Below are positions 2,362 to 20,933 of a DNA stretch of 52,086 nucleotides, one piece after another. Each line of letters starts with the position of its first letter. Position 1 is the stretch's first letter. The notes under the pieces were generated by a model. That model saw only the letters and a program-made list of their open reading frames with translations. It had not been told where the DNA came from and did no database searches. The stretch comes from a virus (lineage: Duplodnaviria; Heunggongvirae; Uroviricota; Caudoviricetes). The DNA lies in IMG/VR virus record IMGVR_UViG_2698536618_000020, one strand, 5' to 3'. The position numbers and the translations under genes were made by a program.

Positions 2362-4430
2362 GATTTATCACCTTCGAAATTTTCAAGCCTGTTGGCAATC
2401 ATGATGGCGATATCAGGGATTGCTGGCGCTGTGGCTATACATGCGGGGTTGGCGCACAAACCATAGACGGCGGCAATCACGAGCTGTCTTTTCCAGTCGA
2501 GAGTTACTGGCTCAGAATTGGCGTCATCGCCGGACGTATCACTGCCTGGCTCGTTCTGAACAACGGTTTCGCCCTCCTGAGCGGCATCAACAGAGTTTTC
2601 CTGAATGATCTTCTCCTCAGTTTGTGCTGAGTCTTCTCCATCAGCGGCGTCATTTTCTCCAAAAGTTTCAGCGTAAGTTTCATCTCCCATTACTGGACCA
2701 CAGTCAGGGCAATGGCCGCCACCGTTCTGACTGCATGTGGTGCTAACCTTTTCCACTTCCTGTTGCATTACTGGCCCTGGCTGTTGCTCTTCTGGCCCGT
2801 TTTGTTGCGTATCCGGGCTGTTTTGTCCCGCTTCTGGGGCAATTTGTTCCACTTTGGGCTGATTCTGGTCCTCAGTGTCGCGAGTCTGGATCCCCTTCAC
2901 CCACTTCGGATCAGCAGGGTTACTGATGCCTTCAACGAATTCTCCACGCGAGGCAGCCAGTAATTTGTCGGCATCGACTGGATTTTTTGGGGGGATGTTT
3001 TCCCTGGCTTTATTGAGTTCCTCCCTCAGTTCCTGGTATTTCGTTTCTACAGATGAGACATTTTCCAGTGATTGCGTGTCCTCATTATGTTTAACTGGAA
3101 TTTCTTCCACTGATTCAGGCGCTGCCTGTTCATTAGCCATTGTGTCCGATGCTTGTTGCTTTTCTTCATCGCCATGTTTTCCTTCTGCTGTTCCGCGCTG
3201 CGGCATCGGTGCTGATGAGCGACCGCAGGCAATTTCCACGATTTCCGGATCCGGGTTAGCGTGATCGGTTTCGGTCAACACTTTGTTGAGATATTCAGTC
3301 ACGCGTGCCGGGATGGCCTCAATGCCGATTGGTGCTTCTTTCACGGAAGCCACCACAATGGCGCGGGAATAATCCAGCCCACCGGGCATGGCGATAAATT
3401 TGTCGCGAAAAACAGAAAAGGGCGGCTTATTCTCTGACACGATTTCTTCAACGCGTTTTGCGTGTGCTGGGTGCAGGTTATAAATATCCACATCCATTGA
3501 ACGGGCCAGAACGCCGGTGGCTACATCTCGTGCGAGTGATGTCTTATCATGTTTGAATCCTTCACCACGATCGGTAATATTTCCGCCGCCAGCGTTAGCA
3601 CCGGAAGGCGTACGGGTAATGCCTGAAACATAATTTCCGTTCTGCCATTCTTTTGTCAGCAGGCCCTGATCAAGGTAGTCAGTTTTCATCCAGGTGGAAA
3701 TGAACTTGTCGAATTCAGCCGGGCTGATGCGATGATTTGCAGAGTGGGGGAATGCTTTCCCTACAGATTCAGCCAGGCGACTAAGGTGATAGTTCGTCAG
3801 TTTATCCAGTTCATGATGCGCGGCGCGCACAGCAGTAAGCAGGCTCTGAAGGTAACTGTCCTCTGTGTCCATCTCCATACGGATCACGTTATTGCGTTGT
3901 TCTGGTGTGGCATGATGCCGGTATTTTCCATCTTCATCTTTGCTGAATAAGAAGAGGTGAAGGAAGCGATGAGTAAGGCTCAGAGTGGCGACGGGAATTT
4001 CACACTCAGAACAGTCATCGTCGCTGTCCGGGGATTCGCTTTTCTCCACATCATCCGGAATAGTTCCGTCCAGGTTATCGTTGTCATCGCCAGCAGTTGT
4101 GGCATCTTCACCGTTGATGTTGTCATCGAAGGGGATAGCCATCATGGTGATGCCATCGTTACCGCCTTTTTCATAGCGGTTGCAGAATTCAGTATCAAAC
4201 ACGCCTTCCGGTGGAAGGTCATTCACGACGGGGAAATTTACGCGAACGGGTTTTTTGAAATCATCCTCGTCGTAGCCTGCATCGTCCATGGCTGCAATGC
4301 AGCGGGAAACTGCGACAGAAAGTTTTCTGGCCTCGGTCCAGAAAAAACCGCCTTTGATGCCAAGGCGTTTTCTGACTTTATCGTTTTTTGCTTCGCAGTG
4401 TAGTGCAAAAGTCTGTTTATCAGCGCTCAT
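2358..4430 (-). CDS. large acidic hypothetical early protein (690 aa), function unknown
   Basis: 2073-nt uninterrupted ORF, ATGA-coupled to gam; long D/E/Q-rich low-complexity segments, two CxxC pairs ([16 protein letters not shown]), hydrophobic C-terminal segment; occupies the kil/cIII/ea10 slot of lambda. Confidence 0.7.
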
Positions 4431-13270: not shown

Positions 13271-13515
13271 ATTCATTACGATATGGGAATTCCCATATCG
13301 GGTAAAAACGGTTTGCGGTAAAGCGAGAGTTAAGTAGAATTGCTGCGGGTGCTTGAGGCTGTCTGCCTCGGGCATGCCACCGTAAGGCAGACAGAGAAAA
13401 GCCCCAGTTAACATTACGCGTCCTGCAAGACGCCTAACATTAATCTGAGGCCAATTTCATGCTAGACACATGTAGGTTAGCCTCTTACGCGCCGAAAGGC
13501 AAGGAGAAGCAGGCT

Positions 13516-13671
13516 ATGAAGCAGCAAAAGGCGATGTTAGTCGCCCTGATCGTCATCTGTATTACCGTCATTGTGACGGCACTGGTAACGAGGAAAGACC
13601 TCTGCGAGGTACGAATCCGAACCGGCCAGACGGAGGTCACTGTCTTCACAGCTTACGAACCTGAGGAGTAA
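13516..13671 (+). CDS. hok: Hok/Gef-family type I toxin
   Basis: 51 aa 'MKQQKAMLVALIVICITVIVTALVTRKDLCEVRIRTGQTEVTVFTAYEPEE', matches E. coli HokD/RelF as I recall it; AAGGAGAAG SD; longer in-frame upstream ORF (13459) is Mok-like. Confidence 0.85.
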   Translation: MKQQKAMLVALIVICITVIVTALVTRKDLCEVRIRTGQTEVTVFTAYEPEE

Positions 13672-15294: not shown

Positions 15295-15638
15295 TTTTTG
15301 TTCCGTTATTAATGTATAACACATAGTGTTACATTGCGTAGGGATCTGCAATGCCATCAGTTTGACAACGTCGCGTATCCGGGATTATATTCATCGCACG
15401 CCAGCAAAATCTGGCGTCGGGATTAGGAACCCCGGATAGAAACCGCGACAGAGACACGCCGCGAGCGTGTTTTTTATTGTCGTATGCACACGCACATCTG
15501 AATTATGGTGGGGCGTATAGGGGAGCTGAAAAGCTCGCCGGTTGGTTTCCCGGTAGTTCCTAACCCTGTACGTCTCGCCACCCGATGATTAGGAACCTGA
15601 CGGTGGTGATAGTTTAGAAACCACTCGAGGGCGTCATT

Positions 15639-16310
15639 ATGACAACTCAAGTTTCTGTTGAAACACTCTCCACGATTACTTACAAGCAGATCCCCGTTAT
15701 CACTACCGAACTTTTGGCGCACCTTTACGGCACAGAAGCTATTCGTATTCGCCAGAATCACCACGAAAACAAAGGTCGTTTCATTGAGGAAAAACACTTC
15801 TTCAAACTTGAAGGTGAAACTTTACGTGAGTTCAAGCACAGAGTAGCTTTTAACTACTCTGTGAAAATTGCCCGTAACGTTCGCTCCCTCATCCTATGGA
15901 CAGAACGCGGCGCAGCCCGTCACGCAAAAATGCTCGAAACTGATCAGGCGTGGGAGGTATTCGAAAAACTGGAAGACTGCTATTTCAGCCAGGGAAAAAC
16001 AGCACCAACCGAACAGCAGCCGCAGATTCAGCCACAATTCACAGCCGAAGAAATCATCCTCCTTTGCTACATGCAGCTCTGGATGGAAAAAGCCCAGGAC
16101 CTCAGCAAACACCTGTATCCCATTATGAAAGAGCTGAACTCCTCATACACGAACAAGCTGTATGACATTGCGTTTGAGACCATCTACATGGTGACGAAGA
16201 ACAGAGACGCGCTACTAAGGGAGGTAACACGTCTCGACATGTCAAGTTCCATTATCCAGCGGGCCATGCCAATGCTGAAAAGCCTGCGGGCAAGACAATT
16301 TGAATTCTGA
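15639..16310 (+). CDS. ORF6N/KilA-N-like domain protein (putative antirepressor-type regulator)
   Basis: 223 aa; N-terminal 'ITYKQIPVITTELLAHLYGTEAIRIRQNHHENKGRFIEEKHFFKLEGETLREF' resembles ORF6N domain. Confidence 0.6.
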   Translation: MTTQVSVETLSTITYKQIPVITTELLAHLYGTEAIRIRQNHHENKGRFIEEKHFFKLEGETLREFKHRVAFNYSVKIARNVRSLILWTERGAARHAKMLETDQAWEVFEKLEDCYFSQGKTAPTEQQPQIQPQFTAEEIILLCYMQLWMEKAQDLSKHLYPIMKELNSSYTNKLYDIAFETIYMVTKNRDALLREVTRLDMSSSIIQRAMPMLKSLRARQFEF

Positions 16311-17636: not shown

Positions 17637-17830
17637 TGAATGCTAAAATTCAAACGATACCTGAATTACTGATCTGCACCAGGGGAAATCAGACAGAAGT
17701 CGCCAGAATACTGAACTGCAATCGTGCTACAGTCAGAAAATACATTGATGATAAAGATGCGAAAAAGCACGCCGTCGTCAATGGCGTCCTTATGGTTCAT
17801 CGCGGATGGGGTAAAGATACTGATGCGTGA
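17633..17830 (+). CDS. ninH: NinH
   Basis: 65 aa; '[42 protein letters not shown]' matches lambda NinH. Confidence 0.8.
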
Positions 17831-18257
17831 TATCCGGCAGGTTCTTGAGCGCTGGGGGGCATGGGCGGTAAATAACTATGAGGATGTTACATGGTCGCCC
17901 ATTGCTGCCGGATTTAAGGGACTGATCCCCGAAAAAGTAAAATCACGTCCACAGTGCTGTGACGATGATGCGATGGTGATATGCGGGTGCATAGCCCGCC
18001 TTTACCGGAACAATCGCGATCTGCATGACTTGCTGGTTGATTACTACGTGTTGGGGGAGACGTTCATGGCGCTGGCACGGAAACATGGGTGCTCTGACAC
18101 CTGTATAGGTAAACGCCTTCACAAAGCGGAGGGGATTGTTGAAGGCATGCTGATGATGCTGGGAGTGAGGCTTGAGATGGATCGGTATGTTGAGCGTGAA
18201 TTGCCGGGAGGGAGAAGCTCTGTATTTTATCAGCGAAAAAATAGTTTACGATCGTAA
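17823..18257 (+). CDS. Q: late antiterminator Q (933W/Q21-like type, not lambda Q type)
   Basis: 144 aa from ATG overlapping ninH stop; '[24 protein letters not shown]...[16 protein letters not shown]' as recalled for Q of Stx-phage type; last gene before late leader. Confidence 0.75.
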
Positions 18258-18304
18258 AAATCTGCATATCATGATAAGAGTGGTTACATTGCCACGCAGC
18301 CGAA

Positions 18305-18327
18305 CCCGCCGATGCGCGGGTTTTTTT
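18305..18327 (+). terminator. tR'-like terminator of short late leader transcript
   Basis: CCCGC-cgat-GCGGG hairpin followed by TTTTTTT, about 50 bp after Q stop. Confidence 0.65.
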
Positions 18328-18506
18328 GTACCCAGAATCCTGTGAGCTATACGGAAAGTACACAGAAAGGAAGGTACGACCGCAATTAATAACAAAATCT
18401 TAAAAATCTCATATGGCACTATTAGTTTTCTAAATATTGTATATTTTAAGTATTGCAGGATAACCCTGTAACGAAGTTTGCGTAACAGCATTTTGCTCTA
18501 CGAGTT

Positions 18507-18537
18507 TGCCAGCCTCCCCTGGTGGCTGGCTTTTTTT
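18507..18537 (+). terminator. second intrinsic terminator in late leader
   Basis: GCCAGCC-tcccctggt-GGCTGGC + TTTTTTTGT. Confidence 0.65.
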
Positions 18538-19022
18538 GTATCCGTTCAACGGGAATGTTACATACCTCACAATTAAGTCAGTTGAATGTTGTCTGCCCGG
18601 ATGAGAATTTGTTAGAAAAAACTGCATGGTGAATCCCCCTGAGCGGAGGGGCGACTGGTGACGGTATAATCTCTGATTATCAAAACGAGAATGACGCGGG
18701 TTTAGTGGCACCGGGCTGAACTCACCGGGAGGCACCCGGCACCATGCAATGGCACATAGCGCCACTCTCCAGCCCCTCTCCGGAGGGGCTTTCTTATGGA
18801 CAAAAAAGCCCGCGCTGGGAGACGCGGGCGGCAAGGAATGAACAATGAAACGTGAAGTAATATTTCAGCTGGCGAATAATACCCCATAGTAATCACTCTG
18901 CGCAACTGCGCGACCTTTTTCGAATTGCGGGCTGTAGTCTCCCTTCTGCCATTGTCCTGTAACTTCCGGACTTCAGCCCGCTCCTTATTTTACTCACAAT
19001 ATTATCCCGGCCGGGAGGATTC

Positions 19023-20933
19023 ATGACATTTAAACACTATGATGTTGTCAGGGCGGCGTCGCCGTCAGACCTTGCGAAACGAATAACTCAAAAACTGAAG
19101 GAAGGGTGGCAGCCTTATGGTAGTGCGCTGATTTCGACAGCTGGTTATGGTGCGGAGTTCATCCAGCCAGTTGTGAGTGAGGGGAGCATCTCATCACCAG
19201 AGGAGCCAGGCAACCGTCCGACGACCTCAGCGCCTTCTGTTGCGCCAGAATATTACTATGTGATCGCGCTTGCTGGTCAGTCCAATGGTATGTCATACGG
19301 TGAGGGACTGCCATTACCGGATACATTCGACAGCCCTGATCCACGTATTAAACAGTTAGCGCGTCGCAGTACGGTGACACCGGGCGGTGCAGCATGCAAA
19401 TATAACGACATCATTCCGGCGGACCATTGTCTGCATGATGTGCAGGACATGAGCCGTCTTAACCATCCGAAAGCGGACCTGTCAAAGGGGCAGTACGGAA
19501 CCGTGGGGCAGGGGCTGCATATCGCCAAAAAACTGCTGCCGTTTATACCGGCGAATGCGGGCATTCTGCTGGTTCCGTGCTGTCGTGGTGGTTCAGCGTT
19601 CACCACCGGAGCTGATGGCACATACAGTGACGCGAGTGGCGCCTCGGAGAATTCAACCCGCTGGGGTGTGGACAAGCCGCTGTATAAGGACCTTATCGGT
19701 CGAACAAAAGCGGCACTGGAGAAGAACCCGAAAAATGTGCTGTTTGCCGTGGTGTGGATGCAGGGGGAATTTGATTTTGGCGGTACGCCGGCAAATCATG
19801 CCGCACAGTTTGGTGCGCTGGTTGATAAATTCCGTGCAGACCTGGCGGATATGGCAGGCCAGTGCGTCGGTGGCTCTGCTGGCGGTGTTCCCTGGATATG
19901 CGGGGACACGACGTATTTCTGGAAGCAGAAGAACGAATCCACGTACCAGACGGTGTACGGCAGCTATAAAAATAAAACGGAAAAGAATATCCATTTCGTA
20001 CCGTTCATGACCGATGAGAACGGGGTGAATGTGCCGACGAACAAACCGGAAGAAGACCCGGACATTCCAGGTATCGGTTATTACGGTTCGAAATGGCGTG
20101 ACAGCTCAGCCACCTGGACGTCACAGGACAGGGCGAGCCATTTCAGTTCATGGGCTCGCCGTGGGATTATTTCCGACCGTCTGGCAACGGCGATTCTGAG
20201 CTGCGCGGGTAAGTCTTCTGCGTTTGTTAATGGTACTGCCGGGGTGGTTGTTCCAGACAGACCGGTTACCACCTCAGAGTCTGTAATTTTTTACGATGCC
20301 AAAAAAGCTACAGACAATCAGCTGAAACCCTATGGCTGGGACGGCATGTATGGCAGACGCACACTGGTTGATGACAGCGGCAATAAAGCTCTGCGAATTG
20401 AGAAAAATAACAGCGCGAAATCCTGGTCAATGTACTGTGATATTGCTGCAGACAAGGCAAAACTTTTACTGGAAAAAGGCGGAGAAATTGCTGTCCGGTT
20501 TAAAATCCCCGAAAACGTCAATCTTGAGACAACCAGAAACAAGTATGCCTTTGGTTTGTACTGGCGAATAGCGGAATGGCCGGGTGAGGGTGGTGAAGGC
20601 CATCTGAGTTCTTTCTTTGTCCAGACAGATAAAGCCAGTATTAATGTTGCATACCATCATACAGTTAATCAACAAAAAGAACTTGGCACGTTTGGCGCAT
20701 TCGACCATGACTGGCATACGCTTGCATTTAAATTTAAGGGCAGTAACAGCATTAATGTTACTCCGGTGCTTGATGGTGTGGATGGACAGGCGTTTGACCT
20801 GGTGAAATGGGCCAATACTGCTAATGGACTCAACAGGTTTGTCATTACGGATATTACAGGTAGTGCAGAAACCTACCCTGTACTTATTGATACGGTGGAA
20901 GTTAAAGCAAACAAAGCTGGAGCAGCCGCATAA
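19023..20933 (+). CDS. nanS-p: NanS-p-like sialate O-acetylesterase (prophage-encoded)
   Basis: 636 aa; N-terminus MTFKHYDVVRAASPSDLAKRITQKLKEGWQPYGS as recalled for Stx-prophage NanS-p/DUF1737; central SGNH/SASA-like region; position between Q and lysis genes. Confidence 0.75.
   Translation: MTFKHYDVVRAASPSDLAKRITQKLKEGWQPYGSALISTAGYGAEFIQPVVSEGSISSPEEPGNRPTTSAPSVAPEYYYVIALAGQSNGMSYGEGLPLPDTFDSPDPRIKQLARRSTVTPGGAACKYNDIIPADHCLHDVQDMSRLNHPKADLSKGQYGTVGQGLHIAKKLLPFIPANAGILLVPCCRGGSAFTTGADGTYSDASGASENSTRWGVDKPLYKDLIGRTKAALEKNPKNVLFAVVWMQGEFDFGGTPANHAAQFGALVDKFRADLADMAGQCVGGSAGGVPWICGDTTYFWKQKNESTYQTVYGSYKNKTEKNIHFVPFMTDENGVNVPTNKPEEDPDIPGIGYYGSKWRDSSATWTSQDRASHFSSWARRGIISDRLATAILSCAGKSSAFVNGTAGVVVPDRPVTTSESVIFYDAKKATDNQLKPYGWDGMYGRRTLVDDSGNKALRIEKNNSAKSWSMYCDIAADKAKLLLEKGGEIAVRFKIPENVNLETTRNKYAFGLYWRIAEWPGEGGEGHLSSFFVQTDKASINVAYHHTVNQQKELGTFGAFDHDWHTLAFKFKGSNSINVTPVLDGVDGQAFDLVKWANTANGLNRFVITDITGSAETYPVLIDTVEVKANKAGAAA

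Follow-up and report, generated by a model that had tools for sequence, protein, structure and literature searches.

The DNA analysed here (the window; 52,086 nucleotides, IMG/VR virus record IMGVR_UViG_2698536618_000020) belongs to a virus of the Caudoviricetes, and the features around the start of its late genes are listed in Table 1. An interval of 765 bp (18258-19022) separates the stop codon of the antiterminator gene Q (18255-18257) from the ATG of a nanS-p-type gene at 19023, exactly the bounds given by an earlier reading of the sequence, here called the first-pass annotation. Translated from the ATG at 17823, Q is a protein of 144 amino acids that scores 170 bits with the Pfam family Phage_antitermQ and is identical to the Q protein of the Shiga-toxin (Stx) phage 933W at 142 of 144 positions (99% at the protein level); it is the stx-associated Q933 allele, as the first-pass annotation had presupposed when it took the locus for that of a Stx-phage relative. 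On the far side of the interval, the first late gene past the leader encodes a sialate O-acetylesterase of 636 amino acids whose Pfam domains (DUF1737, SASA and DUF6645) mark it as the nanS-p type. Its 5' portion aligns with the homologues of 933W, a Stx2a phage (LC645409) and the Sakai prophage Sp15, and its counterpart in Escherichia coli O104:H4 appears in RefSeq as a 'SASA family carbohydrate esterase'.

Table 1. Features in and around the Q-to-nanS-p interval (positions in the window)
Feature	Position	Strand	Basis
Q antiterminator gene, Q933 allele	17823-18257	+	Comparison with 933W Q; Pfam Phage_antitermQ
Late promoter PR' (-35 TTTACG, 16-nt spacer, -10 TATCAT)	18245-18272	+	Promoter scan
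StxS long form, predicted PR'-to-tR' transcript, 258 nt	18280-18537	+	Alignment and published end points
T1, promoter-proximal GC-rich hairpin and U run, terminator-like	18302-18331	+	Terminator scan
StxS short form, predicted stable sRNA of 74 nt; contains the tR' hairpin (about 18508-18530) and U tail	18464-18537	+	
Unoccupied cargo junction	18541-18566		BLAST breakpoints; junction sequences read directly
STnc100-family sRNA gene (EcOnc27/sRNA103 family; related to PasD)	18596-18801	+	Rfam RF02076
Candidate short sRNA: unpaired 5' arm of roughly 29 nt, then convergent terminator (stem 18829-18808 and U run)	18801-18858	-	Terminator scan, fold, alignments
Upstream part of a longer putative minus-strand RNA, EcOnc21/EcOnc42 Hfq-peak homologue	18859-18994	-	Promoter scan, identity to Sakai
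nanS-p-type sialate O-acetylesterase gene	19023-20933	+	Pfam DUF1737, SASA and DUF6645

The leader opens with the late promoter PR', from which transcription would start near 18280, 8 nt past the -10 element, with the qut site just downstream. This position agrees with that of pR' and qut in the 933W annotation; the region is identical to 933W in alignment columns 1-58, and the 933W record lists pR', qut and two possible terminators in the same order as the window. Terminator-like hairpins are enriched across the interval (six found by the terminator scan vs 1.3 expected), and the two intrinsic terminators already noticed in the first-pass annotation correspond to T1 and to tR' (18506-18537). 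A feature named tR' in the phage Nil3 record maps to 18381-18449, where the window has no terminator; it was disregarded, and the placement of tR' follows the annotation of 933W and the Term-seq position.

T1 combines an 8-bp GC-rich stem with a U run of 7-8 nt, lies 23-52 nt past the PR' start and folds with a z-score of -4.05; in 933W it is annotated as a 'possible rho-independent terminator'. It is retained in all relatives, even in the O103 strain RM8385 where a different Q gene precedes it. The appearance of a strong terminator so close to the start sits awkwardly beside the published primary transcript of 258 nt, and T1 may yield an RNA so short that RNA-seq overlooked it, or may form part of the Q-loading or pause architecture.

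That primary transcript is the precursor of the small RNA StxS. In both Stx phages of strain Sakai, dRNA-seq and Term-seq place the start at PR' and the 3' end at tR' 258 nt apart (PMC7547250), and RNase E cuts the PR' transcript to a stable Hfq-binding RNA of 74 nt, for which the Sakai copies showed activation of rpoS and repression of stx1 (Sy et al. 2020, PMC7547250). In the window, counting from the predicted start at 18280 to the last U of the run at 18537 gives exactly the published 258 nt. The unit shows a mean column identity of 98% across the window, 933W, Sakai Sp15, the Stx2a phage and phage phi296, and its 3' 74 nt (fold z-score -2.7) differ from those of 933W and Sp15 at two bases of the terminator loop and by one extra U. 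The promoter, the spacing to tR' and the near-identical 3' part are thus those of the published RNA; the Sakai copies form the 5' leader of stxAB, whereas the prophage in the window has no toxin gene. Judged by its sequence, this is a complete StxS gene in a toxin-free prophage, and Hfq binding, processing by RNase E and activation of rpoS would be expected here by extension from the Sakai copies.

Immediately beyond tR' the alignments to relatives break off. From 17702 to 18536 the window aligns without gaps, at 95-98% identity, to 933W, the Stx2a phage, Sakai Sp15 and the stx-negative phi296; homology to the Stx phages then stops at tR' and restarts just past stx2B, about 45 nt beyond its stop codon, with the flanks 93-98% identical to those of Stx2a phages. 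The BLAST breakpoints fall at 18536 and 18554 against phi296, which holds a 473-bp module with ileZ-argN-argO in between, and at 18536 and 18567 against the Stx2a phage and 933W, in which roughly 1.8 kb consisting of a methylase fragment, three tRNAs, stx2A and stx2B occupy the same place. Alignment to 933W-type Stx phages, proposed earlier as a means of finding the insertion point, thus locates it, although not as the whole 765 bp for which the site had been taken: as drawn from these breakpoints, the slot proper comprises just a few bases of junction sequence around 18546-18553, at most 18541-18566 (about 8-26 bp).

The searches for cargo agree that the slot is empty. ARAGORN finds no tRNA gene in the entire 52-kb window, while the same search recovers three tRNAs in each of the relatives used as positive controls, and Rfam likewise reports none. 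When the Stx1 and Stx2 A and B subunits are compared with the window by tblastn, the best match has an E value of 0.11 and none lies inside the interval; the full cargo modules of four relatives give by blastn only chance matches of 13-24 nt, all outside it. The absence of stx and tRNA genes from the interval, asserted in the first-pass annotation with the proviso that fragments of either would overturn it, holds in each of these searches, and with the Q933 allele and flanks that align on both sides of the tRNA/stx module its description of a toxin-free Stx-phage relative with an empty cargo slot is borne out.

The interval likewise contains no convincing open reading frame, in keeping with the same annotation. 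None of its nine ORFs reaches the cut-off of a Pfam family, and their frames are not preserved in close relatives; a protein-coding reading of the nine was rejected on these two counts. The proposal that a small protein is encoded here, for example by the minus-strand ORFs of 67-134 amino acids that some phage annotations list as 'hypothetical protein', draws on the several ORFs called at this place in phi296 by PHANOTATE and on a YmjE-like Pfam match (14.2 bits, E 0.044) at about 18631-18741 on the minus strand, antisense to STnc100. This match lies on an ORF of 134 amino acids, the longest on the minus strand, but its score remains below the curated cut-off of 27 bits and the frame is not kept in the Stx2a phage. 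The ORF also runs across the cargo junction and therefore cannot exist in relatives whose slot is occupied; the ORF of 67 amino acids is framed differently in the close Stx2a phage, and the RefSeq record of 933W has no CDS at the matching position. The YmjE-like frame is probably not a gene here, and we consider a protein product of the interval very unlikely.

Past the junction the interval is far from blank. A full-length match to the STnc100 family (165.1 bits vs a gathering score of 47, E 1e-38, model positions 1-206 of 206) lies at the place that STnc100 also occupies in 933W, the Stx2a phage, phi296 and Nil3, and the sequence folds with a z-score of -2.9. STnc100 has been described 75 nt downstream of stx2B, where it overlaps the Hfq-bound sRNA EcOnc27/sRNA103 (PMC12370729, PMC12711010, PMC4104026), and a 2026 preprint has linked it to PasD. 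The sizes of EcOnc27 on northern blots (235-247 nt) would place the 5' end of STnc100 at about the junction itself. An Rfam search of the interval, suggested at the outset as a check on its emptiness, thus confirms the lack of tRNA genes and at the same time shows that the interval is not empty. Weaker Rfam matches (Qrr, VqmR, anti-hemB, OmrA-B, snoZ13 and others) fall far under their gathering scores, are driven by terminator hairpins and were taken as chance.

A second RNA locus converges on STnc100 from the opposite strand, and its terminator (fold z-score -3.9) abuts the STnc100 3' end. Homologues of this region in strain Sakai are the sites of the RNAs EcOnc08, EcOnc21 and EcOnc42, which in that strain, the only source of such data, measure about 271 nt on northern blots and are bound by Hfq according to CRAC. 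Identity to Sakai Sp15 and Sp4 amounts to 85-87%, and the upstream part is conserved in six of six relatives. The Sakai coordinates published in 2014 and 2020 misfit NC_002695.2 until a shift of +134 between record versions at Sp15, derived from the position of tR', is applied; so mapped, the EcOnc08 peak of Sp4 corresponds to about 18801-18875 and the EcOnc21 and EcOnc42 peaks together to about 18881-18968 (EcOnc42 about 18886-18968), all on the minus strand. The crosslinked sites of all three RNAs thus have homologous sequence in the window. The segment 18801-18858 is a candidate short Hfq-type sRNA at the position of AsxR, homologous to the EcOnc08 peak of Sp4, and by homology with the Sakai sites the expression of a longer, Hfq-bound RNA of about 271 nt would be a candidate here as well. 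A promoter predicted at 19029-19001 would give 194 nt, vs the roughly 271 nt published for Sakai. Within the region of the minus-strand Hfq peaks the plus strand carries a small hairpin, TGCGCAACTGCGCG, followed by a T-rich run (18899-18912).

The anti-sRNAs AsxR, AgvB and EcOnc03 (Tree et al. 2014, PMC4104026) provide the closest precedent; AsxR, which holds this position in 933W, has been described as the convergent partner of STnc100 (PMC4104026). The locus in the window resembles them in its position upstream of nanS-p, in its orientation towards STnc100, and in the combination of a short unpaired 5' arm with a terminator in about 55-58 nt; it differs in sequence, which is unrelated beyond the terminator core and lacks the conserved 3' 42 nt of the family. 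Neither AsxR (RF02703) nor AgvB (RF02702) matches 18760-19030 in Rfam even at E<=10, while 933W, the positive control, scores 88.1 bits, and with the alignment also unrelated an AsxR or AgvB identity of the minus-strand locus was rejected. An identity with HnrS (EcOnc10-12) was set aside on position only, as the coordinates published for it in Sakai are some 5 kb away from where Sp9 and Sp10 carry their convergent sRNA loci. A sharp mosaic boundary separates window positions 18801-18895 from positions 2975-3060 of the 933W locus, the cassette of AsxR promoter, sRNA and terminator. The non-AsxR cassette of about 95 bp is common to the window, Sp15, Sp4, phi296, Nil3 and Stx2_EC3283 (genus Oslovirus); it resembles the AsxR cassette of 933W in length and architecture, and towards nanS-p the sequence is conserved in these and in 933W alike.

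Viewed together, these features bear on whether the interval does anything at all. A functionally inert spacer made of nothing but terminators and hairpins would be consistent with the lack of protein family matches and with a RefSeq annotation that is blank at this place in O104:H4. It would leave unexplained the 165-bit match to STnc100 over its full length, an almost unchanged version of the StxS unit that has been characterised by experiment, the homology to the Hfq-crosslinked EcOnc08/21/42 sites and the strong conservation of non-coding sequence across mosaic phages, and we regard it as extremely improbable. The first-pass annotation, which saw only terminators and hairpins in a non-coding empty leader, was right about the terminators; STnc100, the StxS unit and the convergent minus-strand sRNA locus are present as well, and known regulatory RNA genes flank the slot on both sides.

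Comparison with characterised prophages places the locus more precisely. In 933W and Sakai Sp5 the late region runs in the order Q933, PR', qut, T1, tR', ileZ argN argO, stx2AB, STnc100/EcOnc27, AsxR and nanS-p. The window shares with them a Q identical at 99%, an identical PR'/qut, a StxS unit of about 96-98% identity and equal positions of STnc100 and nanS-p; it departs from them in lacking the methylase fragment, the tRNA genes and stx2AB and in carrying another convergent cassette in exchange for the roughly 95-bp AsxR cassette. Its region past the slot is 82% identical to 933W as opposed to 93% to the Stx2a phage Stx2_EC3283. The phages phi296, TL-2011a, PPwrbA, Nil3 and Lahn2, which are stx-negative and carry only tRNAs, share Q, StxS, STnc100, the convergent cassette and nanS-p at about 96%; their slot is filled with the 473-bp ileZ-argN-argO set and methylase fragment that are absent from the window. 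Closest of all are the stx-negative prophage of O104:H4 (2011C-3493, C227-11) and its relatives, which are 99.9-100% identical to the window over the interval and junction. Over about 23-25 kb the prophages of the O104:H4 lineage are 98.6-99% identical and carry one of the strain's nanS-p genes; the window is identical to no complete genome in the collection and represents a mosaic relative of these prophages. In O104:H4 2011C-3493 the RefSeq annotation is blank between Q and the esterase, and stx-negative prophages with nanS-p have already been described in O104:H4 (PMC8065619).

The empty junction itself is widespread. A probe of 161 nt across the slot matches uninterrupted in 90 of 5,426 complete E. 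coli genomes, which belong to several serotypes and include the O104:H4 outbreak lineage; the tR' side is present in 682 genomes of the same set. The deposited phage records that contain the Q-PR'-tR' module number 291, all of them occupied and none with the empty junction, in a collection skewed to toxin-converting phages. In the O103 strain RM8385 (NZ_CP028112.1, 1713088-1715050) the succession T1-StxS-tR'-junction-STnc100 is preceded by another and longer Q gene and by another promoter region; the sequence is homologous to the window from T1 onward only, with a divergence of about 10%. It follows that the leader module is exchanged independently of the Q allele and that the adjacency of tR' and STnc100 is common to diverged backbones.

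This distribution speaks to the age of the empty state. The prophage could be a recent stx-loss derivative, in which the tRNA and stxAB module was deleted from a Stx phage, as opposed to a backbone that never carried it. Such a history would fit the 93-98% identity of both flanks to Stx2a phages and the occupied state of 291 of 291 phage records, and repeated chromosomal loss of stx has been proposed (bioRxiv 10.64898/2026.05.13.724894). Against it stand the absence of any leftover sequence from the methylase fragment, the tRNAs or stx, junction sequences in which no repeat or microhomology is seen at the breakpoints, and the skew of the phage collection. The same junction, moreover, recurs in backbones that have diverged by about 10%, follows another Q gene and is shared by 90 genomes from several serotypes; this pattern speaks for an old configuration that has been maintained independently. 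Since the tR'-STnc100 adjacency is common to diverged backbones, the sequence comparisons favour an old or ancestral empty slot over a recent loss of stx, which we consider improbable; a single ancient deletion is possible.

Elsewhere in the window Rfam identifies further RNA features, all on the plus strand. A sok antitoxin RNA (13347-13521, 116.9 bits) implies a hok/sok-type toxin-antitoxin module in the early region of the prophage. At 15398-15585 isrK (69 bits) and a C4 antisense RNA (66 bits) form a tandem closely preceding an ORF6N/antirepressor-like gene (ORF 15639-16310), and together with this ORF the pair resembles a P1/P7-style c4-ant immunity module ahead of the nin region.

The anatomy of the interval, its homologies, the absence of cargo and the distribution of the junction among genomes together make it very probable that a lambdoid prophage with a 933W-type Stx backbone has its late-operon leader in this interval, the moron slot between tR' and STnc100 being unoccupied. 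How such a leader would operate can be projected from published homologous copies, from which transcription, processing, Hfq binding and targets are taken over, the RNA ends being transferred from Sakai/EDL933. In the lysogen PR' would fire constitutively and, without Q, RNA polymerase would halt at tR' (18537) to leave the 258-nt StxS precursor, which RNase E would trim to the 74-nt Hfq-binding StxS that activates translation of rpoS. After induction, Q of the Q933 allele would load at qut, and polymerase would read through T1, tR' and the terminator of STnc100 and go on to transcribe nanS-p and the lysis genes. Past the slot, STnc100 on the plus strand and the EcOnc08/21/42-type RNA at the AsxR position on the minus strand would converge, each with its own terminator, and either might be expressed independently or arise by processing.

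The arrangement as such is already known: earlier work describes stx-negative prophages that carry nanS-p, and likewise StxS, STnc100/EcOnc27 and the occurrence of convergent sRNAs at the moron site. What the present locus corrects is an annotation habit, in that the Q-to-nanS-p interval of Stx-type prophages, blank in RefSeq, carries three sRNA loci, at least one of which, StxS, has been shown in its Sakai copies to affect host RpoS. A more far-reaching set of consequences, held jointly, appears doubtful at present: that the prophage acts in trans on a co-resident Stx2 prophage, that its flanks serve as a recombination site for the stx cassette, and that the minus-strand RNA is an uncharacterised variant of the anti-sRNAs. 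The first two are suggested by a Q that is 99% identical, and a PR'/qut region that is identical, to those of Stx2a phages. Were they true, in a polylysogen such as O104:H4 the Q of the window could antiterminate the toxin transcript and the extra StxS copy would raise the dosage of the sRNA, while the two highly similar flanks, one of 835 bp and the other longer than 600 bp, would act as acceptor or donor in homologous recombination of the stx cassette; the convergent minus-strand RNA would have its own target. The locus also shows that these sRNA genes move with the phage backbone independently of the toxin, and that toxin-free prophages may add to the dosage of StxS and STnc100 and may supply a Q933 able to act on a co-resident toxin phage.
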